The position numbers and the translations under genes were made by a program. The notes beneath the pieces are model-generated. The model made no database searches. It was not told where the DNA came from and saw only the letters and a program-made list of their open reading frames with translations. 64,000 nucleotides of DNA from an uncultured delta proteobacterium (GTDB lineage: Bacteria; Desulfobacterota; Desulfobacteria; Desulfobacterales; JAHEIW01). Within the stretch, counting starts at the first letter, position 1; every line of letters starts with the position of its first letter. The stretch is taken from assembly GCA_963706575.1 (NCBI GenBank), contig CAVPNL010000008.1:224001-288000 (forward strand), written 5' to 3'. Below are positions 1,304 through 23,253 of this stretch, piece after piece.

Positions 1304-1315
1304 GGTTTTCTTGCC

Positions 1316-4300: not shown

Positions 4301-4484
4301 CGGTGTTGGCCAGGACTTCGGCGCTGGCACCCGGATAGGTGGCAGTCACCCTGATCTCCGGTGGGGTGATCTGCGGATACTGGGCGACAGGGATGTTCAG
4401 CAAAGCAATCAGTCCGGCCAGTGTAATGAAAATGGACACGACCGCCGCCAGGCGGGGCCGGTTGATAAAAATCTTTGAAATCAT
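1316..4484 (-). pseudogene. RND efflux permease (AcrB/HAE1 family), split by a single frameshift near 2856
   Basis: ORF 2601..4484 (MISKIFINRPRLAAV..., PVAQYPQITPP, GLVVDDAILVVENV) and ORF 1316..2848 (FLPEEDQG, GLAAKNAILIVEFA, RFRPVMMTS) are the two halves of one AcrB-like protein. Removing one base at CTA ATC A GCC ATT ATG restores the frame. Could be a sequencing error. Confidence 0.88.
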
Positions 4485-4487
4485 CTT

Positions 4488-5612: not shown

Positions 5613-6172
5613 TAGATTTGCTCCTCCTGTTCGGCTTGTATGATTTTCTCATCTTCAAAACCCGGTACAATGGGAATTTGGCAAGTTTCAGCACATCTTT
5701 TAAATATTTGTAAAAGTAGGTAAAATAGCACATGAAAATGATTATTTCAATTTATTACATTGCCCGTGCCAATAGGTCAGGTCCTTTTTTAACGGCGGCA
5801 TTTTTGCAAAAAAATCCGGGAGAATGCAACGGCCATTCGTAAAGACGGCAAAAAAATCCGTGTGAGGCCGCTGAAGGCCGCATGTGCAGTTTTTGCTCAA
5901 AAAGGGTACTGAGACACAGCTTAGCTATCGTTCTTTGGAAATACCGAACTCCTGAGGAAATAAAACGTACCGCTGTGCACAGATCGAATAAAGTCTTTGA
6001 ACGATATTATTAAATTGAAAGCTAAGACATGCGAAGTATTTATGAGGAAACGCGAGGGGAGGGCAAAAGCATAAAAACGGTCAGGTCAATTAAATTCTCG
6101 AAGTGACAAAGCTGATAAAGATTTTAGGGGGTGTGGAATATCCATAACCCACTACAATCTTTATATATTTTA

Positions 6173-6229
6173 TGGTGCCGAAGGCCGGAATTGTAAAATT
6201 ATTTATAAAATCAAATAGTTAATAAAATA
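6173..6229 (-). repeat. att-like junction 5: tRNA-Leu 3' end copy plus truncated conserved arm
   Basis: TGGTGCCGAAGGCCGGA at 6173-6189 is identical to tRNA 23167-23183. It is followed by ATTGTAAAATT...AATCAAATAGTTAATAAAATA, with an IHF consensus at 6209-6221. Confidence 0.9.
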
Positions 6230-6251
6230 CCGTGCCCTGAACTCACAACCA

Positions 6252-7322
6252 TCAGTGCATAAAAAGCTCCGGCCTTCGCTCCTTCAAACTCAACATAAAC
6301 TGCTGGCCGTATTGACGGGCGTAGTTAAAATAATGCTCAATCCGATCTTGCGTGGAATCCAAGGGGATTTCACATCCGGATGATAGGATGTATCCGCTGC
6401 CCTCAGCCGCCTTATTAGTGCAATCACGGATGGCGTGCTCCATTTCCTCCCGGGTTCCGGAGCTGAACAGGGACGTTGGCACATTGCCCATCACGATTAA
6501 TTGGGCGGCCGACAGATCAATTAGTTTTTCCAGAGAAGAGGGGGCATCCAGGCTGAGCAAGCTGATTCCGGTTTCGACAATATCGGCCACTATGGGATCA
6601 ATATATCCGCATACATGCAGCGCCATAAGGGCTTTGCGGGAATTGAAATACTGGCAAAGCTCTTGATGATACGGCTTTATGAAATTCCGGTAAATCTCAG
6701 GTGAGATAAGGCTGCAGGAAGCAGCGGCCTCCCCTAGAGATGGTGAAAAGCCGGCTTCGATCAGGGTATCCCCCACCGTTCGAACCACCTCCGTGCTGAA
6801 TTTCATGAGTTCATGGACGAAGGCCGGGTCGTCGTAGGTGTCCATCAGAAGCGACTCGGTCCCCCTGAGGTGCACCGCGATATTCCAGGGGCCGGAATGT
6901 CCCAATCCCATGGTGGCCGTCTTTTTTATCTCCGAGGACACCCTTTGGCATAACTCGATGAAATAGGGTATGCGCCCGTCCCGGGCAGGATTCGGCACCT
7001 TCAGTTTGGCCAGGCGGGATTTTTCCTTCAGCAGAACTGATTTGGGATGCGAAGGACGATCATCAAAAAACTCCAGTTCACATCCGATAGCTTCTGCTTC
7101 CAGGTAGATATCGTTGTAAACGATAAGGCTGTCGGGTTCGAATCGATTGTAAAATGCCAGGTGTGCTTCAGCGCTTTTTTGTGGATCGGTCAGGATTTGC
7201 TTAACGCTATAACCGGTCATTTTACAACAGTAGGGGCCAATTAGTACCGTCGTGGGAATCCGGTCGGCATATTTCCGCTTTAAAGCAGAAAGCACATAAT
7301 ACTTCCCGCTGGTTCTTTCCAT
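6252..7322 (-). CDS. Uroporphyrinogen decarboxylase family protein (MtaA/CmuA-like methylcobamide methyltransferase)
   Basis: EAEAIGC, GPWNIAVHLRG, Zn-binding LHVCG and ILSSGCEIP motifs. Confidence 0.85.
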   Translation of the reverse strand: MERTSGKYYVLSALKRKYADRIPTTVLIGPYCCKMTGYSVKQILTDPQKSAEAHLAFYNRFEPDSLIVYNDIYLEAEAIGCELEFFDDRPSHPKSVLLKEKSRLAKLKVPNPARDGRIPYFIELCQRVSSEIKKTATMGLGHSGPWNIAVHLRGTESLLMDTYDDPAFVHELMKFSTEVVRTVGDTLIEAGFSPSLGEAAASCSLISPEIYRNFIKPYHQELCQYFNSRKALMALHVCGYIDPIVADIVETGISLLSLDAPSSLEKLIDLSAAQLIVMGNVPTSLFSSGTREEMEHAIRDCTNKAAEGSGYILSSGCEIPLDSTQDRIEHYFNYARQYGQQFMLSLKERRPELFMH

Positions 7323-7483
7323 AACACACCTCCTTTGTTGTTTTAAGGAATAGGGGATCGGGGCATGAATCGTAAATTATGGTGCGACCCGAAGATTACC
7401 GGATTCCAATATAATGTCTTATTGCAGTATAATTCATTTAACAAAAAAGGCACTTAGAATCAATCTAAGTGCCCATCAAAATT

Positions 7484-7525
7484 TGGTACCGAAGCCGGGT
7501 TTGCAAAATAAATTATGAAATCAAA
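7484..7525 (-). repeat. att-like junction 4 (degenerate copy of tRNA-Leu 3' end plus short arm)
   Basis: TGGTACCGAAGCCGGGTTTGCAAAATAAATTATGAAATCAAA resembles the other junctions. Preceded by the hairpin GGCACTTAGA-ATCAA-TCTAAGTGCC (7449-7473). Confidence 0.7.
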
Positions 7526-7531
7526 ATTTGC

Positions 7532-7969
7532 TTAGTCGAAAAATTTCAGCGTGTACATGCTTGAATGCCATTCCGGATGTCGCGCTTGATATTCAGCCGG
7601 GCACTTTCCGCTGCCATCGGTTACGTGGATAAGAATATTATCTCCATGTACGGAAAGGGTCCATGGATTTTTGATATGTTCTGTATGCGCTAAAGCCTCC
7701 GGCTTAATGTTAATGTCGTTGTGCGCGGGATTGGAAAAATAATTGGAGACAGCCGCTTTGATGTTCAATGCTTCGGATTCCACACGCCGACAATAGCTTT
7801 CCGGTCGATAGACAGGAATGCTCGGTATAACAATTCCCATAATTATTATTACAACAAAAAACAGCAGCAATATAACAACTAATCTTTTTATGTTTGTTTT
7901 TGGTTTTTCCTTAGTCTGCTCATCCATCACCATGGCCTCTTTGGGGCTTCCTGTTATGCTAGATAACAT
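7532..7969 (-). CDS. Pilin-like membrane-anchored hypothetical protein (true start probably ~7933)
   Basis: N-terminal hydrophobic helix ...IIIMGIVIPS followed by an amphipathic helix (RVESEALNIKAAVSNYF), as in type IV pilins. No G/F..E prepilin cleavage motif. Confidence 0.55.
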   Translation of the reverse strand: MLSSITGSPKEAMVMDEQTKEKPKTNIKRLVVILLLFFVVIIIMGIVIPSIPVYRPESYCRRVESEALNIKAAVSNYFSNPAHNDINIKPEALAHTEHIKNPWTLSVHGDNILIHVTDGSGKCPAEYQARHPEWHSSMYTLKFFD

Positions 7970-8227
7970 TCAACCCCTAAATTGCTTCACAAGCTATATC
8001 GGATTGATTGTCAAATTCCTTTAGAGGAATCAAACTGCCAGAAAGGGAAAGGGGGCGGGTCACGCTATGTTTTTTTGTAAAGTATAAACAGGGTCCATTT
8101 TTATCCTTAAACAGCTATTTTAAGAGTAAAAAATGACCATATAAGAAACAGACAAGCCGCAATCCATTCAGATTGCGGCTTGTTGGTTACAAAATTTTCT
8201 TCGGTCATTCACCAATCATCCATAAGA

Positions 8228-8250
8228 AAAGGGGCATTAGATGCCCCTTT
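8228..8250 (-). terminator. Rho-independent terminator-like hairpin
   Basis: AAAGGGGCAT-TAG-ATGCCCCTTT just downstream of the 8283 stop. A second hairpin lies at ~8152-8183. Confidence 0.6.
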
Positions 8251-8282
8251 GGTTATACTGGTAATACCTGCGATAGATCATC

Positions 8283-8567
8283 TTACTCGGCGGTCAGTGA
8301 TGTGATGACTCCCTTGCTATCGCATTCCACGTTGATGGAATCACCTTGTTTCAAATTCTTAAGGCTTTCCATATTTATTTCTGGACCTGCCTTAAGCTTT
8401 TTGACATCACCGGTATCATCCTTTATTGTTAACTCACCAGTAGCGGGATTGAAGAAATCAACTGTTCCGCTTATTTTTTGCATCTCATCGGCGAATACTG
8501 CCGCAACCGCGATAAAAGAGAATACAAAAAATACCATGACTACCATTGATATAGATTTTTTAAACAT
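8283..8567 (-). CDS. Small secreted beta-rich (possibly OB-fold) protein
   Basis: MFKKSISMVVMVFFVFSFIAVAAVFA signal peptide, then ISGTVDFFNPATGELTI...LKQGDSINVE. Confidence 0.7.
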   Translation of the reverse strand: MFKKSISMVVMVFFVFSFIAVAAVFADEMQKISGTVDFFNPATGELTIKDDTGDVKKLKAGPEINMESLKNLKQGDSINVECDSKGVITSLTAE

Positions 8568-8719
8568 TTTTAACTCCTTAGGGTTTTTAATGAATTCTGT
8601 TTGTTTTAATTCGCTTATCCGTGACAATCTACTATGGATCAATTCTTCGTTTCTCCTTAATTCACACCTCCTTTTTTCGTAGTTGGGCTTTCAATTCCTA
8701 GCCTACGTTTTATTCTCTG

Positions 8720-8735
8720 TGCAATCGGCATACCA
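8720..8735 (-). promoter_or_regulatory. Putative sigma54 -24/-12 promoter
   Basis: Minus strand reads TGGTAT-GCCGA-TTGCA, fitting TGGCAC-N5-TTGCW, upstream of the 8567 start. The genome encodes rpoN. Confidence 0.5.
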
Positions 8736-9180
8736 AAATCATCAGTTTCAATATCCAACTGATATTTAAAGATTTATTTTTGCTGGTACAGTTTTAAGCA
8801 TTTTATCTGTGTATGATTTACCTTACACAAGTAAAAAGGAAAGAGAATGAATTAAAGTTGTAACTAACCGAGTATTCTTTGTTTAATAAACATTTAAGGA
8901 TCTTTTTTACGGGGATACAAAATCATACTCACATCAAGCACTGCGGAGGATATTTTAAGGATAGGCGTTTTGTAGTTTCAAGATTTAGGAGGAAAAGCCT
9001 TAGCCAGCTTAAGCCGGAAAACGACAATTCATTTTCAAGGTATCTGGCATCAGTCGCGCGTTAAAGGGGTTGGACTTAAAACTGAAGGTTAGCTGGTGTG
9101 TGAAAGCGTTTACCGACTATCGCACATAATGCAAATGCGACTTCAGCAAGACACTGAAATCATTCTTGATATTATTTAGA

Positions 9181-9309
9181 TGGTGCCGAAGGCCGGAATT
9201 CAAAATTATAAATAATATCAAATAGTTAATAAAATAAATGATAGTTTAAGCGATATTAAGCCGGTTTTTGTACAGTCCTGGCTGCATATTGGCATATCAA
9301 TTGCGTATG
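9181..9309 (-). repeat. att-like junction 3: tRNA-Leu 3' end copy plus full ~130 bp arm
   Basis: Core at 9181-9197; IHF consensus TATCAAATAGTTA at 9216-9228; then AGTTTAAGCGATATTAAG...TGTACAGTCCTGGCTGCATATTGGCATATCAATTGCGTAT. Confidence 0.92.
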
Positions 9310-9323
9310 AATCCAATATCCCT

Positions 9324-9363
9324 TAAAACGCCCATTTTACCTCTAAAACGCCCATTTTACCTC
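9324..9363. repeat. Perfect 20 bp tandem duplication
   Basis: TAAAACGCCCATTTTACCTC twice. Confidence 0.85.
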
Positions 9364-9576
9364 CCCAATGCTAGTTCTAAGCCAAAAAACTTTTTAATTG
9401 GAAATTTTTATGAATTATCAGATAGTTACTGCGGTCCAACCCCTTATTTATCTCAAAATAGCATTCATTAATTTGAAAATATCGGCGATACTTGGTATAT
9501 ATTATTAGGTAGCGCGTTTTCGATCTTGCGATGGAATTGAGCCTTGCGCACCAATACGATCCAGTTTTGCTGAGAG

Positions 9577-10938
9577 ATGGTTTTCAATTTTTCTTTATCA
9601 AACAAGATAGTTTATATACCCCCGTGCCGACCTAGTGAGCTGTCACCCTTGTCCAACAGGCTTCATCTCATAATTCTATTGATATTCATTTTATCTTTCC
9701 ATGGCTGTGCTGATATGAGAGAAGTTGTTAAATCTCTGCCGCTTCATATCCACCCAGAGGAAAAGATCGAACGAAATGATTTTTTTGTTGCCAAAGAAGA
9801 TGACGTCATTGGCCGGTTGGCGGCCATCAGACTTCAAAAGGGGGATACGCTGCCGGATATTGCGAGACACTTCAGTCTGGGAATCAATACAGTCAGTGCA
9901 GCTAATCCGGGGGTAGATATATGGGTGCCTGAGGCCGGAAGGCGCATCCTGTTGCCGCTGAGTTTTATCCTGCCAGACACCCGCAGAAAAGGTATCGTGA
10001 TCAACTTAGCCGCCATGAGGCTCTTTTATTTTAGAAAAGATGGTAAACTATTGGTCGTGTCGACCTACCCGGTCGGTATCGGTACCACAGAGCAGCCCAC
10101 CCCCATGGGCCGAATGTATATAACGCGCAAGAAGTTGCGGCCGACCTGGTATGTGCCCGCCGTGATTGCTGAAGATCATCGGAAAAAGGGAGATCCTCTA
10201 CCGGCGAATGTACCACCGGGGCCTCTAAATCCTCTGGGAGAATACGCTCTCTATTTAAGCAAATCAGGCTATTTGGTCCATGGTACGAATAAACCGGCCA
10301 GTATCGGTCTCAGGGCAACCTATGGCTGCATAAGACTCTATCCGGAAGATATAAAGAGACTTTTCAAAAACACCCCGGTAAAAACACCTGTTCGCATTGT
10401 TAATCAGCCATATCTAGTCGGCCAGCGTGATGGAATAATTTACATAGAAGCGCATCGGCCCGTTGAACAATCAGGCACCGCTGAGTTGAAGAAGGCATAT
10501 GCAAAATTGAGAAATATTGAAAAGAAGTCAGGGCACGCGCTTGACTGGAAAAAGGTTGGGAAAGTAGTGGGGGAGGCCCGCGGGTTCCCAGTTCCCATAT
10601 TCGAGATCAATCAAGGAAGTGAAAAGGTTGTTGCGGAAACCATAAAGCTCTGGCATCCGCGCAAGTTGTATGGCAAACCGGAAATACCGGAACTCAAAAC
10701 GGACGCGTGGTATGTTCTGGCTGCTACTTTGCGTGACAAGGTTGACGCTCTGAGGCTTGCGGCAATTATTAATCATCAGGGTCCACAAATTCCCGCAAGG
10801 GTGTTGTCAACGAGCGATCGCTACCGTGTTCTCGCCGGTCCTTTCAATAATATGAGCGAGGCCAAAGATGCGGCAAAACGTTTGAAAATTGATTTGGAAA
10901 TAGACGGTATACTGGTTGAACCGATAAAGGAGAGTTAG
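9577..10938 (+). CDS. L,D-transpeptidase (ErfK/YbiS/YcfS type) with LysM and C-terminal SPOR domain
   Basis: GDTLPDIARHF LysM-like region, IVINLAAMRL, PPGPLNPLG, HGTNKPASIGLRATYGCIRL catalytic motif, C-terminal YRVLAGPF SPOR. The true start may be further downstream. Confidence 0.92.
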   Translation: MVFNFSLSNKIVYIPPCRPSELSPLSNRLHLIILLIFILSFHGCADMREVVKSLPLHIHPEEKIERNDFFVAKEDDVIGRLAAIRLQKGDTLPDIARHFSLGINTVSAANPGVDIWVPEAGRRILLPLSFILPDTRRKGIVINLAAMRLFYFRKDGKLLVVSTYPVGIGTTEQPTPMGRMYITRKKLRPTWYVPAVIAEDHRKKGDPLPANVPPGPLNPLGEYALYLSKSGYLVHGTNKPASIGLRATYGCIRLYPEDIKRLFKNTPVKTPVRIVNQPYLVGQRDGIIYIEAHRPVEQSGTAELKKAYAKLRNIEKKSGHALDWKKVGKVVGEARGFPVPIFEINQGSEKVVAETIKLWHPRKLYGKPEIPELKTDAWYVLAATLRDKVDALRLAAIINHQGPQIPARVLSTSDRYRVLAGPFNNMSEAKDAAKRLKIDLEIDGILVEPIKES

Positions 10939-11169
10939 CGAATTGCGCCCTTTTTTTCACGTTCAAGCCGTTGAAGTTATTTAAATATCTCTATCCAGAG
11001 CCTGAGCCGACCCTGCATTGAGAATTCAGGCAATGGTTGTACTTTAACTCCAAAAGAGGTACATTTTTTGCAGTAAGTAAATAACCAACGTGGATATTTT
11101 TGTGAAGTAACACGGAATTTTTCAGTCGTTGTTATGGAAAGGTAAACTGAACAGAAAGGAGGTGACGAC

Positions 11170-11517
11170 ATGATGAAGAAGAGCCATTTGGTGATCTCAA
11201 TAATGCTTGCTCTCGCTATTGCCGTAGGGGGTTGCGCCACAAAAGGTGACCTCGAGGAGGTGCAGGCCCGGGAAAAGGCGATTGGCGCTAAAGCTGATCA
11301 GGCGGCCCAGGATGCCGAGGCTGCCAAGGCATCAGCCGATGAGGCTGTGAGGAAAGCAAATGAAGCAATGGACCGCGCCGAGGAAGCTGAAAGGAGGGCA
11401 GAGGAAAGAGAGAGAATCGCAGCTGAAAAGGAGAGAATCGCAGAGGAAAAGGCGAGAATCGCAGAGGAAAAAGCAAAACAAGCTGAAGCTGCTTTTCAGA
11501 AATCAATGAAGAAGTAA
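11170..11517 (+). CDS. Lpp/OprI-like alanine-zipper lipoprotein
   Basis: RBS GGAGGT; lipobox VGGC; Ala/Glu-rich coiled coil; ends in ...FQKSMKK (C-terminal Lys). Confidence 0.85.
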   Translation: MMKKSHLVISIMLALAIAVGGCATKGDLEEVQAREKAIGAKADQAAQDAEAAKASADEAVRKANEAMDRAEEAERRAEERERIAAEKERIAEEKARIAEEKAKQAEAAFQKSMKK

Positions 11518-11522
11518 ATCAA

Positions 11523-11556
11523 AAGGAAGTGGCAGGGTTTGAGCCCCCCACTTCCT
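11523..11556 (+). terminator. Terminator-like hairpin after the lipoprotein gene
   Basis: AAGGAAGTGG...CCACTTCCTT followed by a T-rich stretch. Confidence 0.55.
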
Positions 11557-11631
11557 TCTATTTTCACCCTTTAGCATGATACGTATTGCAGATATATATG
11601 GAAGAGGTCCAGTTTGCGATTATCAGGCACA

Positions 11632-11785
11632 TTGTTAGAATCCATCTCAAAATTAGGATTTTGGTTCAAGATCGCGGCGGGGTCTAGTTTAAAACCGGAG
11701 GCATACTGTTGTATGTTGAGGATTTTAAACGAGGCGCCAACAAAGATATTGGGCCAAAAGACATTTTTGAGATGGGTTCTAACAA
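11632..11785. mobile_element. MITE (~150 bp) with terminal inverted repeats
   Basis: TTGTTAGAATCCATCTCAAAA ... TTTTGAGATGGGTTCTAACAA (one mismatch); no transposase inside. Confidence 0.8.
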
Positions 11786-12758
11786 GCACAAACACTTATA
11801 CGGGTTTAAGGCAGAGAAGGGAAGGCGTTTATCTTCGCCTTTTCTTCGTCTGCATCATCATAACACCATTTTTTATATTCGGATGCGGTGGGGGACACCA
11901 GGCCAGATCTCTCACCAAGGAAGCAAATGATTTTTTCAACCAGGGAAAATACCAGGCTTCTCTAAGCAAATACGAGCAAATTATTGAGAAAAGTCCAGCA
12001 GTAGCGGACAGAGTTCTCTTTGAGATGGGTATTATTTATGCCCATCCCAGGAACGAACAAAAAGACTATCAAAAGTCTCTCAATTGTTTTCAGAAAATCG
12101 TTAGGGATTACCCGGATAGTAAATTCAGACAGGATAGCCAGATGATGATACTTCAAATCCATAATGTCATCATCAAGAATAAAAAAATTGCTACGCAGCA
12201 AACACAGATTGAGACTTCCCGGCAGGAGGTTAAAGCCAAAGAGAACGAGATTATCACACTGCAAGAGATGATTGAAACGCTCGAATATAAAGATTGAATC
12301 GCTTGAACATAGAGATTTTTGCACTCCGGACGGAACCGGCAGATAAAGTTCTGATAGAAAAGAAAGAGCGACGATTGACGTTGCTCTCAAAGGGCGAGGT
12401 GATCAAAGCGTACAAAATAGCCCTGGGGGGCGACCCGATTGGCCCGAAAGAAAGGCAGGGCGATAACAAAACCCCGGAGGGAACCTACATAATCGATTCA
12501 AGAAACAACAACAGCGAATATCACCTGTCTCTTCATATTTCCTATCCTAACGAGAAAGACAAAATGCGAGCAAAAGAACTTGGTGTTTCTCCGGGCGGAA
12601 ACATAATGATCCATGGCATCAAAAATGGTCTCGCGTGGGTGGGTGCATCTCATGCAAAGTTTGACTGGACAAAAGGGTGTATTGCGGTTACAGACGAAGA
12701 GATGCAGGAAATCTACAGGCTGGTGCCAAATGGTACGATTGTTGAGATAAGGCCCTAG
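11786..12758 (+). pseudogene. TPR + coiled-coil + YkuD L,D-transpeptidase (YafK/DpaA-like) lipoprotein, frameshifted near 12290-12312
   Basis: ORF 11614..12297 (lipobox IFGC, TPR-like helices) and ORF 12294..12758 (GPKERQGDNKTPEG, SLHISYPN, IMIHG, WTKGCIAV) join if two single extra bases are removed. The 5' end abuts the MITE, so the start is uncertain. Confidence 0.75.
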
Positions 12759-12850
12759 AAAAATCGCACAACTTATCGTTAGACCAAATCGCTCTGATAA
12801 AAAAAAACGGATTCAGCCGTTTGCTGAATCCGTTTTTCATTATTTGCAAA

Positions 12851-12980
12851 TGGTGCCGAAGGCCGGAATTGAAAAATTAATAATGATATCAAATAGTTAA
12901 TAAAATCAATAGCTAGTTTAAGCGACATTAAGCTAGTTTTTGTACAGTCCTGGCTGCATATTCGCATATGAAATGCATAT
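12851..12980 (-). repeat. att-like junction 2: tRNA-Leu 3' end copy plus full arm
   Basis: Core at 12851-12867 (22/23 identity to the tRNA over TGG...TTGAA); IHF consensus at 12887-12899; TGCATATTCGCATATGAAATGCATAT. Preceded by the hairpin AAAAACGGATTCAGC...GCTGAATCCGTTTTT. Confidence 0.93.
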
Positions 12981-13004
12981 CATTTCCGACTCTTTCGTAT
13001 CGAG

Positions 13005-13313
13005 TTAAACAATCGCTTTTGCGATACCTTCTTTGTTAGCTCCCATGGCCAGCAAAGATTTGACAAGCAGATCCACAGATACGCTCGGATCTCCCTTCTC
13101 CATCTTGGCGACCCTTGATTGACTGGATTTCAGCATTTTGGCTAACTGTGCTTGCGTCAAATTGCTTTTTTTGCGGCGTTTTGCCAAAGCTTCGCTGAGC
13201 GCCAGTTTTAGCTCTATGTATTCCGATTCTTCAGTACTCAGTCCAAGAAACTCTTCAACAGTTCCGACTTTATAGCCTTTAGATTCTAAAACTTTCTTTT
13301 TTTTCGTATCCAT
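13005..13313 (-). CDS. XRE/HTH antitoxin-like transcriptional regulator
   Basis: LTQAQLAKMLKSSQSRVAKMEKGDPSVSVDLL HTH_3 motif. Confidence 0.88.
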   Translation of the reverse strand: MDTKKKKVLESKGYKVGTVEEFLGLSTEESEYIELKLALSEALAKRRKKSNLTQAQLAKMLKSSQSRVAKMEKGDPSVSVDLLVKSLLAMGANKEGIAKAIV

Positions 13314-13314
13314 T

Positions 13315-13737
13315 TTATTTTTTCCCTTCTAGGGTACTCTTGCTGGGCGTTATCGCATTTTGAGCAGCATGAACCAGGAAAGAAGATCGAGACATACCTC
13401 GTTTTCTTGCAATTGTATCGATTTTACGAAGCATATCTTCCGGGACAGTGATATTCACGCGAATGGATCGAGGTTTTGCGTCGGATACAGAAACAATGAG
13501 GATCGCGGCGGCATCAGCATAATCCGGATCGTCCATGATATCTTCAAGCTTTGAGGGAGTCGGTATATTTTCACCGTCTTCCATCATCCCCTTGATGTGT
13601 AGAGAAAGAGCATCATGAGCCATATCCTTGGCTTCATCAATGGAGCTGCCGGCGGTAATACATCCCGGAAAGTCAGGAAAAGATACACCGAAATCACTTT
13701 TGGGATCTTTATGGACCACGGCAATATAATTAGCCAT
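13315..13737 (-). CDS. hicB: HicB family antitoxin
   Basis: FGVSFPDFPGCITAGSSIDEA N-terminal motif; RVNITVP...ID...GMSRSSFL ribbon-helix-helix. Confidence 0.93.
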   Translation of the reverse strand: MANYIAVVHKDPKSDFGVSFPDFPGCITAGSSIDEAKDMAHDALSLHIKGMMEDGENIPTPSKLEDIMDDPDYADAAAILIVSVSDAKPRSIRVNITVPEDMLRKIDTIARKRGMSRSSFLVHAAQNAITPSKSTLEGKK

Positions 13738-13746
13738 TTTGCCCTC

Positions 13747-13935
13747 CTATTTGAACTGAATACCTGATTGGCGTTCAATACTTTTCAAAGTGCCAACAGG
13801 TATGTCTTTGTTAGGATGCGGAACTGTAACCCGTCCCTTTTTTGATGGATGTTTAAACTGAATGTGTGAACCGGATTGATCGACCTTATACCAGCCATCC
13901 TTTTGCAGAATTTTGATGATCACCCGGCTATCCAT
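13747..13935 (-). CDS. hicA: HicA family toxin (mRNA interferase)
   Basis: MDSRVIIKILQKDGW...GSHIQFKHP...RVTVPHP...GTLKSIERQSG. Confidence 0.93.
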   Translation of the reverse strand: MDSRVIIKILQKDGWYKVDQSGSHIQFKHPSKKGRVTVPHPNKDIPVGTLKSIERQSGIQFK

Positions 13936-13971
13936 GTGTGTATTTATACACACTAAATAGATTTGTGTCAA
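13936..13971 (-). promoter_or_regulatory. hicAB promoter with palindromic operator
   Basis: Minus strand TTGACA (13971-13966), 17 bp spacer, TATAAA (13948-13943). Palindrome GTGTGTAT-TT-ATACACAC (13936-13953) overlaps the -10. Confidence 0.7.
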
Positions 13972-14091
13972 ATATTATTTAATTCTAAGATAACAACGGC
14001 ATGAAAATGGGCGGGCAAGCTCCGTGACGTGTCGACCAATAAAAAGTGGGCCACAAATAATTTGCAACCCACTTAAAATATTATAAAAAAA

Positions 14092-14220
14092 TGGTGCCGA
14101 AGGCCGGAATTGTAAAATTTATAATTATATCAAATAGTTAATAAAATCAAAGCTAGTTTAAGCGACATTAAGCTAGTTTTTGTACTGTCCTGGCTGCCTA
14201 TTCGCATATCAATTGCATAT
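14092..14220 (-). repeat. att-like junction 1: tRNA-Leu 3' end copy plus full arm
   Basis: Core at 14092-14108; IHF consensus at 14128-14140; AGTTTAAGCGACATTAAGCTAGTTTTTGTACTGTCCTGGCTGCCTATTCGCATATCAATTGCATAT is nearly identical to the 12851 copy. Confidence 0.93.
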
Positions 14221-15047
14221 TTTTATGCTGATAAAAACTTTAATTTTAATTGATCCAACCAGTTTTTCCTAATTTTCTATAATTACATCATAGCACCATT
14301 TCTAATATAACTTCGGTTTTGAATTAAAGCGCATTTTTCCGAGTATTCCCCTTCATTATAAAGGTTTCATAATCAATTTATTGAAAATAAGCACATTGAT
14401 CTTTGATTTAGGTAGGCATTTAGCTAATGAAATCTATTTCATTAATTAGATATATATTATAAAAAATAATTTTGTCTCATTATAACGTTCTGTTTTTTAT
14501 ATAAGTTTCTTATTTTTTTCTTGACACTTGAAATCGCATTTCTATATAGAAGTATTGATAAATAGAAAATCGCCGAATTTGAACCATCCCCCCATTTTCT
14601 GACACTTAGGAGGTAAGAATGCTTTAACGCATCTAAAACTCCATTCATAGTTAGGGAATGGGGTTTTTTGTTTTTGAATGATTTTTTAATTATATTCAGA
14701 GATCTCATTCCTAATTCTTTTCTTTCTATCGCGCTAGATTCGCATTGTAGTATTTGTATCAAACCATTTGATTAGTTTATTCCGAATTTTTGCCGCTATC
14801 TGAGAGCTAGATTCTGATTTTCTCAAATATAAAGATCAAGATTTGTTCTTAATATACATAATCGGAAAGCCATAGCGTTTCTTGTTAAGGATTTTATAAA
14901 ATTTAAATTTTGCAGAGATAACGGAAATTCCATACTCATCCCAGACAGTATTTCCACAAACAAAGCATAACCTCTGCATGCACAAGACGCTTGTTTTCTC
15001 GCCTCTGTGATGTAGGGCGATAGGCATTATGAATCGGAGGGGACGTC

Positions 15048-18000
15048 ATGAAAGTTTTTAAAATTACAGGCAAGGTTGTCAGCAGTGATACAAAGGAAGG
15101 TATCAAGGGCTTTAGGGTAGAAGCCTGGGACAAAGATTTACTTGTGAATGACATGGTCGGCAGTGCCATTTCGGGTGACGGTGGGGTCTTTAGAATCCAA
15201 TTTGATAAGTCCTATTTTGAAGAGCTTTTCCTTGACCGCAGGCCCGATCTATTTTTCAAGGTGTTCAAAGGGTCCAGGCTTATCAAGAGTACTGAAGATT
15301 CAGTGATCTGGAATGTGGAGAGGGCGGACATTGAACAGGCTATTGAAGTAGAGGAGGTAAGCGACATGGCTACATCAACCAACAAAGCCGTCTTTGTTAG
15401 GCAGCGAGGAAGTGAAGTATTCAAATTTGTTACCTTGCGACCCTTCCAAAGACAGGATGAAACCACAGTCGAGAAAAGAAAGGTTTTGTGTTACAAACCG
15501 ATTGATGAAGAAAAATCGGAGTTTCATCAGGCGCTATTACATGCCAAAGAACACCTGCCTGAAGGGTCTGGCCCAAGGGAAGCCATGGTGGCTAAGGCCA
15601 AGGAATTTATCGAAACCGATGGGTCCACTTTTGTCCGAAACATTCATGACTTATCGAATCCACAAGCGCCCCGCTCCTCTCAATATACTGGTTATAAATC
15701 GTCTCTGGGCCTATTGGAAGAGTGGATCTTTAGGGGAAAAAATCCGATTTTACACGAAGACCTGCTGTCGGAAATTAAGAACGTATATAAAAAAGATAAC
15801 ATTAATGACATTGTGCAAAGCCCTGAGTTTCAGACAGACATATACAGGCTTCAAGACAGCATCATGGCTCTAGCCATCGTTCCATCCTATGTTCATAGTC
15901 AGCGGGATCGTCTGGTCAATGCCTTACGTATATGCAGAATCATCGAGAGGATGATCGAAAGTGACCCAGGACTGATGCAATCCTACGGTATTGACAAGGC
16001 TATGAAAGCCCCTGTGGTTTTACCCACGGATGTTTTTCCATTGCCACCTGCCAAATTATTAGAAGTCGAAGCCCCTACCGATCAAAATGGGGAACAGGAA
16101 GAAGAATTCGGACAACTGAGTGAAAAACGCATCGCTCTGAGGACAGCCATTGAGGAATTGGCTCATCTGAGACCTAACGATTACCTTCCGCCGTCACCAG
16201 CTACTGAGGAACCTCTTATCTCAAAATTAAAAAAGGAAGATATCAAAAAATTGAGCAACTCCACCAAGGCAGTCCTCAAAGAGCTCAGCATTGACCTGAC
16301 AAAAGAGACCATTCCTGAGGTGCTGGGTATACTCGAGGTAGAAATTGGTACGGCAGAAGAGGCAAAAGCATCTGAGCTTCAGTTGGTCGTGGAAGAATTC
16401 TTAGAACTTTCCTCTCCGCCTTTTCCGCCACTGGCTGAAAAGGAAATTGCAGCTGCTGTAGAGGAGTGGAAACCCTGGATGCTTAAGCAAGAAGCGATTG
16501 ACCAGCTTTGTGATACAACCAAGCAGGTCATACAGGGGCTTGGCTTTGACCTCAGCAGGGATCCGGTTCCCGTTGTGATGAATGCCCTTGAGAAAGAGCT
16601 TGTCAGTGTAGGGGCACAACTATACATACCGCCCAGGCGGAAAAGAATGATCCGCCACGGCACAAGTAGGTTGGAGTTCTTGCCGGGGCTCGAAGTTTTC
16701 TCCGCGGTCGCCAGAGGAACTTGAGCCGATTCGAGTGCCTCAGACTAAGGGTCTTGTTGTGCCTATAGGATTTGGTGAATATAACAGCGTTCGGCAGACC
16801 CTTTTGATGTATGAACCGGGCGAGATCGCTCATATTGAAAACGTTCTCAGGGGAGAACACAAGGAGCGGGTCCACCGGCGTCTTCGCCGTCTTGAAGAGG
16901 AGGTGACCTACGAGGAGGAGCGCAAGGCTGTTACAGAAAAAGACCTGCAGAGTACAGACAGATTCGAGCTTAAGCGGGAAGCATCCGAGACCATCAAGGA
17001 AGAGCACAAGGCAGAGGCAGGCGTTACCGTTAAATATGATGGCCCTTCTGTCGATGTCGAGGCAAAAGCAGGCTATACTTACACCCATGCTAAAGAACAG
17101 GCTAAGAAAACCTCGGTCTGCTATGCAAAGAATGTCACCGAACGCTCCCTGAGCCGACTGGAAGAGAAGGTCCGCGAGGTCAGGGTAGAAAAAACCATCG
17201 AGGAGTTTGAGGAGACCAATACTCATGGCATAGACAACAAAGACAAGCCCGACCATGCCGTTGGTATCTATCGCTGGGTGGACAAAATCTATGAGGCACA
17301 GGTCATCAACTACGGCCAGCGTCTGTTTTCGATTTCGTCGTTCCCGAGCCTGCCGCATTTTATCTCTACTCACTGACCCATGGTGCGACAACAGACCTGG
17401 AAGAACCTGTACCGCCGATGGTCGATGAAAATGGTGAACCATGTGAGGAGGATAATCCCAATGCGAGGTCATTAAGGCCTGATGATATTTTGCCAGATAA
17501 TTACATGATATGGATTGCGCAGTATGAGGTATCAGGTGCTAAGCCGCCGCCAACATTTGAAATAGTGAAAGGTCATTCTTTTTCAAAAGCACCGGAAAAG
17601 ACTGGCGAGGATGATAAGGAAGAAAAAGAAAAGTACCTGTTAAGCAATGAAACAATTCCAATTCCAAAAGGCTATCGACCATACTTTATTTCTGTCGATT
17701 TGTCGCATCCACGGTTTTTGGATACTTATTTAAGTATAGCGGGTGACAATAGCAAACCTAGTATTGACCATAACGAACCCAATATCCCTGTTCTGTATGA
17801 AGACAAAAACTACCATGGTAGAAGATTCCCGCTTCGAGAGTTAAGCATATTTCATCTGGGCGATTATCATTTTGATAATAAGAGTTTCTTCCATTAAAGT
17901 CCCTCCAGGCTGGGCGGTATTTGCAACCCAGCATCACAACTTTGGAGGAAGCCGATGGTACATCACAAGGAATGTTAATCATAATGAATTAAAGGCATTG

Positions 18001-19106
18001 AAGTTACACGACAATATCACTGGTGTGGAAGTTTATCCTCCAGCGGATTTTTATAAAAAGTACACAGGCCTCGGCCACTTAAACTATACAGGAGAGGATG
18101 GAGATCAAACTGGAATTCCAATTTCAGTTGCAATCAAAAGGTCTGACGGCTCTGTGATGAATGTGAATCTATGCTGTCGCAGGACTGATATGCATATGAA
18201 TGAATGGCAGCTCGAGACCTACGACGCCATCATGCAGGCCTATCAGAACAAAAAGGCTGTATACGAGGAAAAGTTGGCGATGGCGGCGATTCAAGAGGTA
18301 TCAGCATGTCAGCCGGAGTCCGGAGCAGAGCGCGAGATTGAAGAGATAGAACTAAAACGGTGGGCTCTTTCCATGATCACAGGGCAATACTTTGAAATCT
18401 TCAATGCCATGCAGACCGACCGCCAGGGGTATCCGGGCATCAACTTTGCCGAGGCAGAAGCGGAAGGCTCCTATATCCAGTTCTTCGAGCAGGTTTCGCA
18501 GGGCCCCTTATGACCTACCTCTTCTATCCCTATTTCTGGGGGAAGAGAAAGGCAACCTGGGAGGGGGTCACCTGGATCGACAAAATAACAGGCATCCAGG
18601 ATGTGGATCCGCTATTTGAAAAGTTCCTTAAGGCAGGCGCCGTCCGAGTCACAGTACCGGTGCGTCCTGGTTTTGAGGAAGCGATTCAGAATTACGTTTC
18701 TACAGGACAAATCTGGAACGGCGATGAGAAGCCCACGCTTGATGACCCCTTGTATGTCTCCATTGTGGAAGAGATTCAGCAACAGCAGGGCGCATACGTT
18801 GAAAAGTCCGAGGGAACGATATCTGTGGAGCTTGGCAATGCACAAGTTGTCGGCGCAGGAACAAATTTTGAAGAAAACGATGTTGACCGCGAGATCTACA
18901 TCGAAGGCAAGCGCTATGTCATCGCTGAGATTCAGGACGCAGCGCATCTCAACCTGACTGAACCCTACCGTGGTGAGACCAAACAGTATGCGCGTTATTA
19001 CATCGGTGCAAGACTGGTCGGTGGACCATGGGAAGTCAGGGTTCCCACCTCATTGGTATATCTACAGGAGGACGCCACCCTTCCCGACTTTAATGAAGAA
19101 GGGTAA
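15048..19106 (+). pseudogene. Large multidomain hypothetical protein (~1350 aa) split into five ORFs by frameshifts
   Basis: ORFs 15048..16724, 16735..17376, 17418..17897, 17872..18513 and 18510..19106 read continuously when small indels are corrected (e.g. CTG TTT T[T]C GAT TTC GTC GTT CCC GAG CCT GCC = LFFDFVVPEPA). RBS GGAGG lies upstream of 15048. Confidence 0.7.
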
Positions 19107-19111
19107 ATGTT

Positions 19112-20437
19112 ATGGGTTCCGTTCGCTTTGTAGATATACTATATGAAGCAAAAGATGGACTTCCGCAGCTTTTCGAGCTTGATCCCTCGATCTATGGGCG
19201 CACGCCATCAAATCTCCTTGATGAGGCTATCCGATTCTATAATTATCCTGCAGCAGGGCTCTATGCAACTGCAACTGCCTGGCAGGTTTTTCGTAATGAC
19301 CATGTCAACAAAGCCATCCTATTACTCCACGATGTCTTGAAGGAAGGTATCGTCACAATGGTTGGCAATCTTTATAAGGACATACTAGGGCATCTGGATA
19401 AGAAAAAGTGCGGAAATGTGGGTGGGTATCATAGTGAGCTTGGCTCCATGTGTGCCGAGCTCTTGGTCTCGCCTAAATGTCGAAGTCAGGAAAAGTTAAA
19501 GATGCTCGAAAGAAGCCCGAACTTAGTGCATTTCAGGGAGTTTGAGAGACTAATGGAAAGCCTTGGGCTCTTAAGAACATGGGGGGAAAGAATAGAGAAC
19601 ATTTATCAAGAGCGTTATTCAAACCTAATTGGAGGATCTGAATCTGAAATAAGACAGGCATTGTTTGAGCCCGCATGGGGTGGTTCATGGATTGTAAAGC
19701 CCAATGAATATCTTTGGAAAACCCGAGACAGGATTTGGAATCCAGAAAACCCTATTTGGCCGTATGCTCCGGGTAATGTTGGTCCAACTGAAAAATTGTA
19801 TTTTTCCCTATTGTCGGGTGTTTTTAAACGACAGCATAATATTCCTTTTTCACAGTCAAGAAATCATTTCGGCCAAACAAAGGACCCTTTTTTGCAGAGA
19901 GTGTATCAGCAATCCAAAACAATTAAGCAAATTATGCCGTCCTATGAGCCGAAAAACAAAAGAATAATTGTATGGAATCTTGGAAGAGAAATCTTGAGCA
20001 CCTCGCTTATATCTTTGAAAAAGCAATATCTGAAGTCAAACACGAGCCTGGGTAGAAGAAAAGAAGAAGAATGGACTTCTTGGATAAAAAGAAATGGTTG
20101 CGGTGTTAGGGTGGGTCTTCCTGCGGCATTGGGTTTGATTGGTATTCTCTATGCCTATATCACCGATCTTCAGGCACGAACCCTGATGGCAGCCCTCTCC
20201 AGTGCAATTATTGATATCTATGAGAAAATCAATGGTTACACCGCAGTGGGTTTGTGTGAGGCTTTGAGCAGGAAAGGTGCCATCGCAACTGTTGGAGACC
20301 AAACGGTGCTTGAGAAAGAGCTAGTCGGCATTCTGAGGCAGTGGCGAACCTTTCCCGCCGCAGAGGTTCAAGAGCTGAACCCTTGGGGAGATGCAAAGGT
20401 AGATAAATCGGTTAGAGAATGCTTAAGCAGCTTCTAA
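19112..20437 (+). CDS. Hypothetical protein, probably co-transcribed with the large gene
   Basis: 441 aa ORF starting 5 bp after the previous stop; no motif recognised. Confidence 0.65.
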   Translation: MGSVRFVDILYEAKDGLPQLFELDPSIYGRTPSNLLDEAIRFYNYPAAGLYATATAWQVFRNDHVNKAILLLHDVLKEGIVTMVGNLYKDILGHLDKKKCGNVGGYHSELGSMCAELLVSPKCRSQEKLKMLERSPNLVHFREFERLMESLGLLRTWGERIENIYQERYSNLIGGSESEIRQALFEPAWGGSWIVKPNEYLWKTRDRIWNPENPIWPYAPGNVGPTEKLYFSLLSGVFKRQHNIPFSQSRNHFGQTKDPFLQRVYQQSKTIKQIMPSYEPKNKRIIVWNLGREILSTSLISLKKQYLKSNTSLGRRKEEEWTSWIKRNGCGVRVGLPAALGLIGILYAYITDLQARTLMAALSSAIIDIYEKINGYTAVGLCEALSRKGAIATVGDQTVLEKELVGILRQWRTFPAAEVQELNPWGDAKVDKSVRECLSSF

Positions 20438-20877
20438 AAAGGCCTCTAATATCTGAGGATAGATGGGAAAAAACTCGATCTTTTAGAAAACAAAAGAGAG
20501 AAATCAGAGAATGTGTGAGTTTTGAGGATTTCCACCGAAACTATATCCCAAGATTTCCGATTATAACAAAAGGATTTTTCGATAATGTTCCTTTACCGAA
20601 AGAGCAGATTCATGGAGAAGATTTTGAGATTGACAAGTGGTATGCTGACGAGAAATTGTATGGAGCAACATTTGAATCCCAGGTTCATGTATTTATCGCG
20701 TTTCAATTTTTAGAAAGATCGAAAAAAATCTTAAAATGGAATTGGGAAAGCAAAAAGTACCGGTTTAAAGAAGACAAAAAGGTGCTAAAGAAAAAAAGAC
20801 ACCCATGTTTCTTTATTACGGCAGGGTTTTTTGTCTTTGGCGGAAGAAAGCGCCCGCATCTTACCCATCGTCATGGA

Positions 20878-21371
20878 ATGACAGATTCAATAACTATTGC
20901 TGTTCTAGAAGCTGCCTATGAAGCAGAAAAGGTGGCATCTGACCATTATGTTGGTTATTCCCGAAAAGCTGTTGAAGAAAGATATCCGAATATTGCCTAT
21001 CTTTTTAGCGCATATGCGGTTTCTGAAAAAATTCATGCAAAGAACTACAAAAGGATACTTGCCTCATTGAACGCAGGGTTTGAAGAGCCTGAATTTAATA
21101 TTTTTATATTAGACACTAAAGCAAATTTAATGAGTGCTTCAGAGGGTGAACTGAAAAGATGAAGGAAACCTATCCAGATTTCCTTGCGAAACTAAAAAAT
21201 GAATCGCATGACGAAGCTATTATCAATTGTATGTATTCTTAGAAATTCGATCGGCAACATAAACGGAAAATCAACGAAGTTCGGAATTATTCAAAATGGT
21301 TTTTTGGTTCAGTGGCAAAAAAAATTGAGGGAATGAAATTTGACTTTCATGTATGTGAGATTTGTGGATCT
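20878..21371 (+). pseudogene. Rubrerythrin/ferritin-like protein pseudogene
   Basis: MTDSITIAVLEAAYEAEKVASDHY...SEKIHAKNY diiron-type motifs. Frameshift near 21158, in-frame TAG near 21240, then FDFHVCEICGS (first rubredoxin CxxC) cut off by IS sequence. Confidence 0.7.
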
Positions 21372-21377
21372 AAACAA

Positions 21378-22971
21378 ATCCCGGTTTCATAGAGGAGCAA
21401 CTGGTGCCCGGCAGTTTGGAGTTTGCCATTCGATATGCTCATTGAGACGCGCATGGACATGTCGGTATTTGAGGGCAACTACAAAAATGACGAGACAGGC
21501 CGCAGTGCCTATGATCCTAAGATTTTGTTAAAAGTGGTATTGTTGGCTTACGCGCGGGGGCTGATATCCTCGCGGCAAATTGAAAGGGCCTGCTGTGAGA
21601 ACGTGACCTTTATGGCGCTGTCTGGCAACCAGCGGCCCGATCACAGTACCATTGCAACTTTTGTATCTTCGATGAAAGATCAGATATTGCCTTTGTTTTG
21701 CGACATTTTATTGGTCTGTGAGCAAGAAAACCTATTGGGCGGGACCTTTTTTGCCTTAGACGGGGTAAAGCTACCGGCTAACGCGTCCAAGGAGTGCAGC
21801 GGCACGATAGCAGAACTAAAAAAGAAAAAGGACAAAATACAACAAAAAGTCAAGCGCCTATTAAAAGATCAGATTGATGCGGATAAAGATGACGATGATG
21901 ATTTTCGCACTCCACCCAAAGTCGAGCAGCAAATTGAGAAGCTTAACAAGCAAGCCGATCGCATTGAAAAATGGCTCAAAAAAAATAATGCCAAGATCAG
22001 CTCAAATGGCAGAGAGCTCAAAAGCAATCTAACCGATAATGACTCGGCGTTAATGCTCACCTCCGGCGGCACCATCCAGGGCTACAATGGCCAGGCGCTG
22101 GTGGATGACAAGCACCAGATTATCGTTCATGGACAAGCCTTTGGCAGCGGACAGGATGCCAAACATCTTGATCCCATGGTTGATGGGGCTAAAGCCAATC
22201 TGGAAAAAATCGGTCAGAGTGCAGATTATTTTAAAGGCAAGATTTTAACTGCTGATACCAATTACCATAATCAAAGCAATTTAAAAAAGTGCCACGATGA
22301 ACAGCTTGATGCATATATACCGGATTTAAAATTTCGCAACCGCGATTCACGATTTGCTACCCGGCCAAGGAATAAACCCAAGAAGGGTAAAAAATTTGTA
22401 TTAGAAGATTTTAAGCACAACAAAGCTGCCGATCACTATATTTGTCCCAATGGTAAGGTGCTCAAGCTAAACGTAAAGCGCCACACCACAGATCACAATA
22501 TCTACCGCCGCTATATGGCCGATGAAGCCGATTGCAGCCGCTGTTCATTAACGCATCGATGTTTTTATCGCAAAAATACAAAACGTCGTTCACTGGATGT
22601 TCCCATCGGTGCAGCAAACACCAATTTTTCCAAAGCCATGCAGCACAAAGTTGATAGTGAGAAGGGACGCAAAATATATCCACAGCGCTTTGCCATTGTG
22701 GAGCCGGTTTTTGCCAATATTAAAACCCAAAAGCGCTTGAATCGATTTACGCTAAGAGGCAAGGTCAAAGCTAACATCCAATGGATGCTCTATTGCATGG
22801 TGCATAATATCGAAAAGATCATGAACTTTGCCACGGCATAAGCGGGATTATCAGCTCCAGGGCATACAAGCGGCATAATAAAACTTACCAGCAGCCCAAA
22901 ATACGACTTTAGAAATGTTTGAAGTTTGGCGCAACAGATGGATGTTTAAAAACAACTTATTCAACAACTTC
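21378..22971 (+). mobile_element. IS1182-family element, 5'-truncated; DDE transposase ORF 21423..22841
   Basis: GRSAYDPKILLKV, SSRQIERAC, RPDHSTIATF, ALDGVKLPANAS, GYNGQ, ADTNY and VEPVFANIK motifs. The upstream frameshifted piece reads IPVS.EEQLVPGSLEFAI. The right end is estimated (ACTTATTCAACAACTT). Confidence 0.85.
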
Positions 22972-23114
22972 CCAACATATCAGCACTTTTGAACTCCGAA
23001 AAAACCTGTGATACTTGTTTTATATCACAAATTATAGAGGCCTTAGACATTATCCCCACGATGTCTTGTCTCCAGTCTCACACAAGTGTTGACCATATCG
23101 TTGACCAAGCCAAA

Positions 23115-23144
23115 AGAAAAGCCCTTTTTAGATAAGGGCTTTTC
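23115..23144 (-). terminator. Terminator downstream of tRNA-Leu
   Basis: AGAAAAGCCCTT-N6-AAGGGCTTTTCT hairpin with an A-run on the left (U-tail on the minus strand). Confidence 0.75.
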
Positions 23145-23166
23145 TCATAACATATTGATATTATTA

Positions 23167-23253
23167 TGGTGCCGAAGGCCGGACTTGAACCGGCACGGCT
23201 TTTGGCCACTACCCCCTCAAGATAGCGTGTCTACCAAGTTCCACCACTTCGGC
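23167..23253 (-). tRNA. tRNA-Leu (anticodon GAG)
   Basis: Minus strand GCCGAAGTGGTGGAACTTGGTAGACACGCTATCTTGAGGGGGTAGTGGCCAAAAGCCGTGCCGGTTCAAGTCCGGCCTTCGGCACCA: acceptor stem, long variable arm, T-loop and CCA. Canonical position after secG. Confidence 0.97.

Follow-up and report, generated by a model that had tools for sequence, protein, structure and literature searches.

The window analysed here, 64,000 nt of contig C8 (CAVPNL010000008.1) from the genome of a sediment sulfate-reducing bacterium, raises the question of how six gene packets without an integrase came to be stacked behind a single tRNA-Leu(GAG) gene, and which enzyme moved them. The array is real, well bounded and active on an evolutionary time scale. 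It probably consists of integrase-less, one-armed cassettes resembling cis-mobilizable elements (CIMEs), which derive from tRNA-Leu(GAG) islands and are excised in cis by a visiting element encoding a tyrosine integrase of the family termed Int-P. Genomes and loci are cited by our G and L numbers, the present genome being G000.

The observed anatomy of the array is simple. Exact copies of the 17-nt core, which forms the 3' end of the tRNA gene, are located at positions 6173, 9181, 12851 and 14092 in addition to the tRNA itself (23167), and a degenerate core is present at 7484, as the preliminary description of the window had stated. In the whole genome six exact core copies were detected against about 0.0007 expected by chance, every one of them on contig C8. 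The units delimited by the cores comprise 9075, 1241, 3670, 1697 (707+990) and 1311 nt, in agreement with the sizes given previously. The suggestion that the RND operon might represent a further unit was borne out by a sixth, full-armed junction at G000:C8:221900, some 2.1 kb beyond the left edge of the window; because this junction exists, the operon is counted as the sixth unit, with a length of 8273 nt. The arm at C8:221900 is 91-92% identical to the copies at 12851 and 14092. That the same arm is attached to each core, twice in a shortened form, was likewise found: four of the six junctions are full-length, with 84-94% mutual identity, and the arm ends after about 56 nt at 6173 and after about 43 nt at 7484. 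Both damaged junctions are internal to the array and the farthest junction is intact, which contradicts the proposed age gradient with the most decayed junctions at the distal end. A seventh remnant, devoid of a core, lies near 8125-8190; BLAST matched it to other unit ends 14 times, with a best E of 5e-19. All six junctions of the present genome carry the Int-P arm, and there is no arm-selection bias within this genome. As described before, the cargo is unrelated from unit to unit, and the six-frame translation of the array, within which an IS1182 transposase gene is situated, contains no match to a tyrosine-recombinase profile below E 0.8.

The junction module of about 128 bp is composed of the core and an arm of about 111 nt that includes a site resembling those of the integration host factor (IHF) and three terminal repeats. 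When 123 distinct arms are compared, conservation is highest in the core, the IHF-like site and the terminal block with its three short repeats. The IHF-like site, scored by consensus, was detected in 72 of 96 arms, and shuffling gave a mean of 11. Of 600 close pairs of arms, 74.5% lose their homology at the terminal repeats or inside them, 246 pairs precisely at the last repeat. No Rfam match was obtained over the arms, and a consensus fold of 15 arms, computed for one strand, yielded three pairs and no compensatory change. The module search in relatives that the preliminary description had proposed detected the module in 15 of 40 relatives, including 11 of the 21 other genomes of the same genus. 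Additionally, a 21-nt arm pattern matched 34 genome stretches of GTDB, some of them overlapping, at least 128 metagenome stretches and no viral contig. Judging from the labels of most named records, the hosts of the arm appear to be Desulfobacterales or deltaproteobacteria. Three of the 34 GTDB matches, with alphaproteobacterial, verrucomicrobial and Chitinispirillaceae labels, reached 14-16 bits and were treated as chance. A full arm (L076:651-780) was also noticed on a 2.1-kb contig labelled Eudoraea (Bacteroidota), which may reflect misbinning or transfer. The mean arm identity was 0.80 for junctions with the proximal unit in common, 0.76 for those with the distal unit in common and 0.70 for unrelated pairs, values that are confounded by kinship; the arm tree was discarded as a test of travel with the cargo versus homogenisation, its resolution being too low.

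The preliminary description had also called for an integrase whose attachment (att) site includes this arm, and such a family was found in Int-P. At several junctions a tyrosine-integrase gene is directed toward the core from the opposite side, where its 3' end borders the core. The Int-P proteins are mostly 410-450 aa in size and contain the PF00589 domain, usually along with PF22022; their genes end in codons that spell the repeat pair of the arm. The nine best genomic Int-P matches comprise seven that adjoin tRNA-Leu(GAG), one that adjoins tRNA-Leu(CAG) and one without a tRNA in the locus. Two genomes reveal both ends of an element on one contig: G418 encodes an intact 420-aa Int-P at the tRNA core, with a second core plus arm 56.8 kb off, and G468 a 5'-truncated Int-P at the tRNA, with core plus arm 22.9 kb away. 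Both cores of G468 have an identical two-base host variant, and G026 likewise shows a common core variant; in the two genomes the core thus follows the host tRNA variant. Moreover, a 19-nt arm motif is found in inverted orientation 17-21 nt before the Int-P start in G210, G418 and G029, i.e. in three of five genes tested, with 2, 2 and 4 mismatches, respectively (0 of 2000 shuffles each); in the present genome the motif is confined to the four full arms. Arm-type sites within an integrase promoter have a precedent in PMC2951348. Because the two-ended layout of G418 and G468 coincides with repeats common to the arm, the gene end and the leader, Int-P is assigned as the cognate enzyme of the arm, and the module of about 128 bp is the distal att of Int-P elements. 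In G081 core plus arm lie on a different contig from Int-P in a compatible orientation; the integrase contigs of G029, G210, G249, G035 and G304, all of them short, contain no distal att.

The Int-P elements, referred to below as helpers, combine replication genes with mixed cargo. A D5-type primase/helicase is encoded in G418, DNA polymerase A together with a DnaB-type helicase in G081, and an excisionase-like HTH gene is located upstream of the integrase in G029; G418 likewise has an excisionase candidate upstream of Int-P. Against the integron-integrase model Int-P scored 39.8 bits at a cut-off of 265. Strong Int-P matches (E 1e-80) were restricted to 7 of the 401 genomes of the class, and Int-P was absent from the matches in the present genome, which is 92% complete (best E 1e-6); the notion of one integrase serving the cassettes thus found no support in this genome. 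The ten PF00589 matches of the present genome, none on contig C8, were rejected as the cognate enzyme: two are XerD-/XerC-like, two pairs are RIT-like and the remainder are fragments or distant relatives, these labels being drawn from sequence and context without a family call. Two recombinases near arms elsewhere were likewise dismissed, that of L095 as part of an IS91-type element and that of L140 as a short protein of a separate type encoded 6 kb from the arm.

The tRNA-side ends of the units present a different picture. With a profile of seven Int-P gene ends, those at 9181 and 12851 scored 18.5 and 16.4 bits (maximum of 612 shuffles 2.4), and the other six array ends of the window received no score. 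Among the latter, the end next to the tRNA aligns to the end of the integrase gene of G012, located at the same tRNA, and to a stub in G026; other tRNA-side ends belong to recurring hairpin families, and the hairpins are heterogeneous and terminator-like. Accordingly, three of the eight scored tRNA-side ends are recognisable integrase 3' stubs at the DNA level, with several families represented. The preliminary description had named integrase remnants in each unit as the mark of ordinary decayed islands: such remnants do exist at these three ends and were not recognised at the others. A set of 41 distinct two-ended units, five of them from the present genome, has a median length of 2470 nt (range 325-9075 nt); it omits units whose proximal junction was unmatched from the core start, including one with an IS91-linked recombinase, and it under-counts long units, most contigs being short. 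The proximal end is Int-P-derived in 16 of the 41 units, and both binding repeats, with the required bases that we infer for them, are kept in a single unit and in none of G000. The tRNA-derived junctions thus do not resemble attP as had been supposed, the paired repeats being lost in 40 of 41 tRNA-side ends, which derive from several integrase families. A whole integrase occurs in none of the 41 units and C-terminal fragments in two, so that the description of the units as non-autonomous with one common att arm was upheld. Cores with another type of arm are rare in these arm-selected loci, with one clear case in G023. The cargo is oriented away from the arm in 31 cases and toward it in 29, and this lack of polarity speaks against the integron-like nature that had been proposed.

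Reassortment at the core was observed between genomes, as the suggested comparison of the locus across relatives was meant to reveal. Among 101 junctions with sufficient flank, the pairs of which are not independent, both sides were common to 2 pairs, the distal side only to 19 and the proximal side only to 79. The YkuD unit, which recurs in several relatives, has six distinct distal neighbours at seven junctions and four distinct proximal neighbours at four, and the identity drops to 0.38-0.62 immediately left of the core at four YkuD junctions. In G004 the end of the YkuD unit adjoins the tRNA, whereas two units lie between them in the present genome. Contigs from four runs, each of a different study, show the end of unit 5 leading directly to the tRNA in 4/4 and to other arms in three, joints whose sides measure about 30 nt and which stem from other organisms or strains. 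Several further arrangements were recorded. The loci L306/L307, L308-L311 and L314/L315 contain core plus arm in long contigs far from any tRNA-Leu, and in G274 a short direct repeat borders a 4.8-kb unit whose end is the decayed 3' half of a tRNA. Arms downstream of tRNA-Phe (L062) and tRNA-Pro (L063) were rejected as cases of retargeting, their cores being of the Leu type; the unit L062:5172-10116 begins at tRNA-Phe and is closed by a Leu-type core plus arm, and it has the appearance of a chimera of two island families.

These data suggest the following course of events. An intact Int-P element would arrive by cell-to-cell transfer and integrate at the tRNA, which would be an open target without an arm, the binding repeats of the adjoining stub being gone. 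On excision in cis, its fresh tRNA-side att, bound by the integrase, would find a partner in its own distal att or in any of the older junctions, and the element would depart with zero, one or several cassettes and stack those carried onto the array of the next host. Later loss of the integrase and the replication part would give rise to new passive units, and deletions across junctions would fuse ends of differing origin. Cis mobilisation is the simplest reading because the distal arm is kept and the proximal one lost; it leads one to expect an intact farthest junction, deep units located at the tRNA elsewhere and proximal ends from any family.

A number of observations weigh against this scheme. 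The contigs of the four runs showed no circle, empty site or excision; this search covered contigs only, no more than 28% of the words were present even in the best runs, and the source run was not found. The one back-joint (7473 to 6171; one run, short side) could as well be an ordinary junction whose arm is similar. No genome was found in which an intact Int-P element is stacked on several such cassettes, nor an Int-P-bearing element in any same-genus genome searched, and the visit is thus assumed. Relatives of Int-P were absent from viral contigs, and from plasmids at E 1e-30, in searches that reach close relatives only, and 46 helper open reading frames (ORFs), a scan that was partial for G081, G029 and G468, included no capsid, conjugation or transfer family. 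Core-plus-arm copies lie hundreds of kb from a tRNA-type core in G108 and G274, and G088 has two copies far from a tRNA with no exact core found. The leader motif of G081 requires a one-base gap and fails the ungapped test (62/2000), and the motif is absent from G206, whose Int-P gene is internally deleted. Finally, part of the arm conservation outside G000 arises from the way in which the 41 units were selected, namely via the arm, and the mutual identity of the YkuD-unit arms is only 75-87%, which fits decay too.

Other explanations have to be weighed against the same evidence. The units might be integron-like cassettes served in trans, with Int-P from elsewhere and IHF joining the junctions and the units excising as circles that re-enter the tRNA or the junctions. 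The small size of the units, with a median of 2.5 kb, the exchange of neighbours at the core and the 16 of 41 units that are Int-P-derived on both sides are in line with this idea, and lambda Int is able to join two half sites of the P' type through a side pathway that depends on IHF. We nevertheless regard it as improbable: with both proximal repeats in only one of 41 units the excised circles would lack a complete attP, the enzyme was not found in the present genome and is rare in the class, the cargo has no polarity and circles were not seen. Equally doubtful is a bolder version in which the conserved distal arm is a universal cassette site, Int-P joining one-armed junctions in trans and capturing island ends of any family. 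If true, it would constitute an integron analogue built from the att arms of tRNA islands across the Desulfobacterales, with an integrase-less primase-helicase plus AbiE satellite. At the opposite extreme, the array could be an inert series of scars, i.e. ordinary stacked islands that decayed and are now fixed, their arms being alike as a result of many recent insertions of one family. The many unit ends with an integrase stub or fragment, broken cargo genes (the split AcrB-type and TPR-YkuD genes and the ORF pieces of unit 1), two truncated junctions, a core-less remnant and the diverged YkuD-unit arms would all be expected on this account. It is unlikely in view of the sharp end of homology at the last arm repeat, the occurrence of arms with 95-97% identity on unrelated cargo, the presence of the same units in other orders and at the tRNA itself, and the intact farthest junction.

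Homologous recombination by RecA between the 130-bp modules might alternatively shuffle the cassettes and homogenise the arms, the integrase having only founded the array. The similarity of the modules within the genome would favour this, as would the arm at 9181, whose identity is 87-90% to arms that accompany other cargo and 80-84% to the remaining arms of the YkuD unit. A module of 130 bp with mismatches is, however, a short substrate for homologous recombination, the conservation is concentrated in site-like motifs, and units adjoin the tRNA as well, with which they have only about 20 nt in common; this explanation is therefore considered highly unlikely. A role of the arm as an RNA or a cargo promoter is barely conceivable: it would account for sharp conservation without a resident integrase, but it is opposed by the missing Rfam match and conserved fold, by cargo running away from and toward the arm equally, and by arms that close integrase-bearing elements. 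Cis mobilisation by visiting Int-P elements hence remains the preferred reading.

With respect to the cargo, the genes assigned to the units are compiled in Table 1 together with the junctions.

Table 1. Features of the tRNA-Leu(GAG) array in window coordinates.
Feature	Position	Strand	Remarks
tRNA-Leu(GAG), target	23167..23253	-	ARAGORN; last 17 nt (3') = core
tRNA-side end, unit 1	23084..23166	+	hairpin and 3' stub from a second integrase family, distinct from Int-P (P0002/P0123 type)
IS1182 transposase, inside unit 1	21423..22841	+	NF033551 above cut-off
Unit 1 cargo	15048..21162	+	ORF run of unknown family (15048-19106), 441-aa unknown, rubrerythrin-domain protein
Junction 1	14092..14220	+	core and full Int-P-type arm; distal att of unit 1
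Unit 2 cargo	13005..13971	-	HicA, HicB, orphan HTH antitoxin
Junction 2	12851..12980	+	core and full arm; 95-97% identity with arms that accompany other cargo
tRNA-side end, unit 3	12760..12850	+	eroded Int-P 3' stub, hairpin; 0 intact repeats; 16.4 bits
Unit 3 cargo	9577..12758	+	YkuD-SPOR L,D-transpeptidase, alanine-zipper lipoprotein, TPR plus YkuD (split)
Junction 3	9181..9308	+	core and full arm
tRNA-side end, unit 4	9090..9180	+	eroded Int-P 3' stub; 18.5 bits
Remnant junction	8125..8190	+	recurring unit-end hairpin; core and arm gone; divides unit 4
Junction 4	7484..7530	+	degenerate core, short arm remnant
Unit 5	6252..7483	-	URO-D/MtaA-type gene and tRNA-side hairpin end
Junction 5	6173..6228	+	exact core; arm cut past the IHF-like site
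Unit 6	1..6172, extends 2.1 kb left of window	-	RND genes and AI-2E transporter; closed by C8:221900

The ORF run of unit 1 consists of five ORFs without a Pfam or NCBIfam match and apparently represents one or two large genes in pieces; one piece resembles unnamed Atlas clusters (0.96-0.97), and its nearest named clusters are of the aerolysin type (0.80-0.81, below lead level). In relatives the partner of the unit 2 HTH gene is a Gp49/RelE-type toxin, the place of which is occupied by HicAB here, a predicted exchange inside a unit. The RND pump genes of unit 6 comprise an HlyD-type gene, a split AcrB-type gene and another gene of 497 aa. Both split genes, AcrB-type (1316-4484) and TPR-YkuD (11614-12758), are present as two ORFs, reflecting a frameshift or an assembly error. 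Within the YkuD unit, an element of about 150 bp with 21-nt terminal inverted repeats (11632-11785) has a MITE-type look; it gave 119 BLAST segments in the present genome, and its contig depth is very high in the sediment runs. The extension past the arm at 9181 is common to 14 of 138 arms, some on other cargo, and contains a tandem duplication of about 20 nt (9325-9364). In other genomes an integrase-less unit recurs, often adjoining the tRNA, that carries an often broken AEP-TOTE primase/SF2 helicase gene followed by the same arm (L045:8096-10555, L034:6643-9099, L050, L062, L075, L091, L116), mostly with AbiEi/AbiEii or a Gp49-HTH pair; this unit might replicate as a satellite of Int-P elements. 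The present genome also encodes both tRNA-Pyl (C15:118432-118505) and tRNA-Sec (C3:141925-142022).

The general architecture of the array is already known, and we consider it a well-resolved example and a variant of known island growth, not a new class of integron. Integrons are arrays of small, reassorted cargo units with one entry end, an adjacent IntI and attI, and folded attC sites. The present array is alike in its small reassorted units entering at one end; unlike integrons it has no adjacent IntI/attI, no common orientation, multi-gene units and an IHF-type arm. An attC-type fold was absent from the arms, which are conserved without a conserved fold; this comparison covered the arms only, unit-end hairpins not being scored by an attC model. 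The decay of islands to integrase-less CIMEs followed by accretion is described in the available part of PMC5704250, in which CIMEs are defined as keeping attL and attR; the available part of PMC5812530 contains nothing on CIMEs. As in the tandem accretion of the ICESt1/ICESt3 family, as far as the accessible text describes it, integrase-less units are stacked at one target, with core repeats between them, and are moved by an accreting element. The present units agree with CIMEs in the absence of integrase and transfer genes, in their tandem arrangement split by att cores and in a distal att that matches an autonomous element. CIMEs retain both att sites, however, whereas the distal arm alone is kept here, as tested in the 41 units for the proximal repeats; moreover, the tRNA-side ends stem from several integrase families and the helpers lack conjugation genes among the scanned ORFs.

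The Dehalococcoides islands at ssrA, according to the sections of PMC3146451 at hand, are also tandem, with 15 lacking an integration module and proposed to be cis-mobilisable, and they possess direct repeats of the target 3' end with a conserved neighbouring motif, the identity starting at the T-loop. They use a tmRNA target and a serine recombinase, and the module is kept in many units; the present array is set at a tRNA and linked to a tyrosine integrase, its arm measures 111 nt, and no helper was found in the genome. The tycheposons and tRNA islands of Prochlorococcus combine rare elements of integrase, replication and cargo genes with partial tRNAs between mostly integrase-less islands (10.1101/2020.12.28.424599), and the Int-P helpers, with integrase, primase/helicase or DNA polymerase and cargo, look tycheposon-like. 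Tycheposons have their own integrase, which here is present in the helpers and in none of the present units, and repeats of about 40 nt; the available part of that report does not mention units that lack an integrase and have a conserved arm in common. For the Klebsiella asn-tRNA islands, which are integrase-less and composite by accretion, a related integrase acting in trans was proposed in the accessible part of PMC4891358, with a helper resident at a sister tRNA locus, whereas none was found in the present genome. Our literature search, with most subscription journals lying outside it, found no paper on this array or on Int-P in the Desulfobacterales.

The analysis names the likely enzyme, the target and both ends for a gene-exchange hotspot of uncultured sediment sulfate reducers, in which a module present in 11 of 21 same-genus genomes contrasts with an integrase for which strong matches are limited to 7 of the class's 401 genomes. 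The asymmetry of a kept distal and a lost proximal arm allows a direct test of whether such units are dead scars, cis passengers or trans-served cassettes, and an intact integrase, a natural att pair and six natural junctions are in hand for it.

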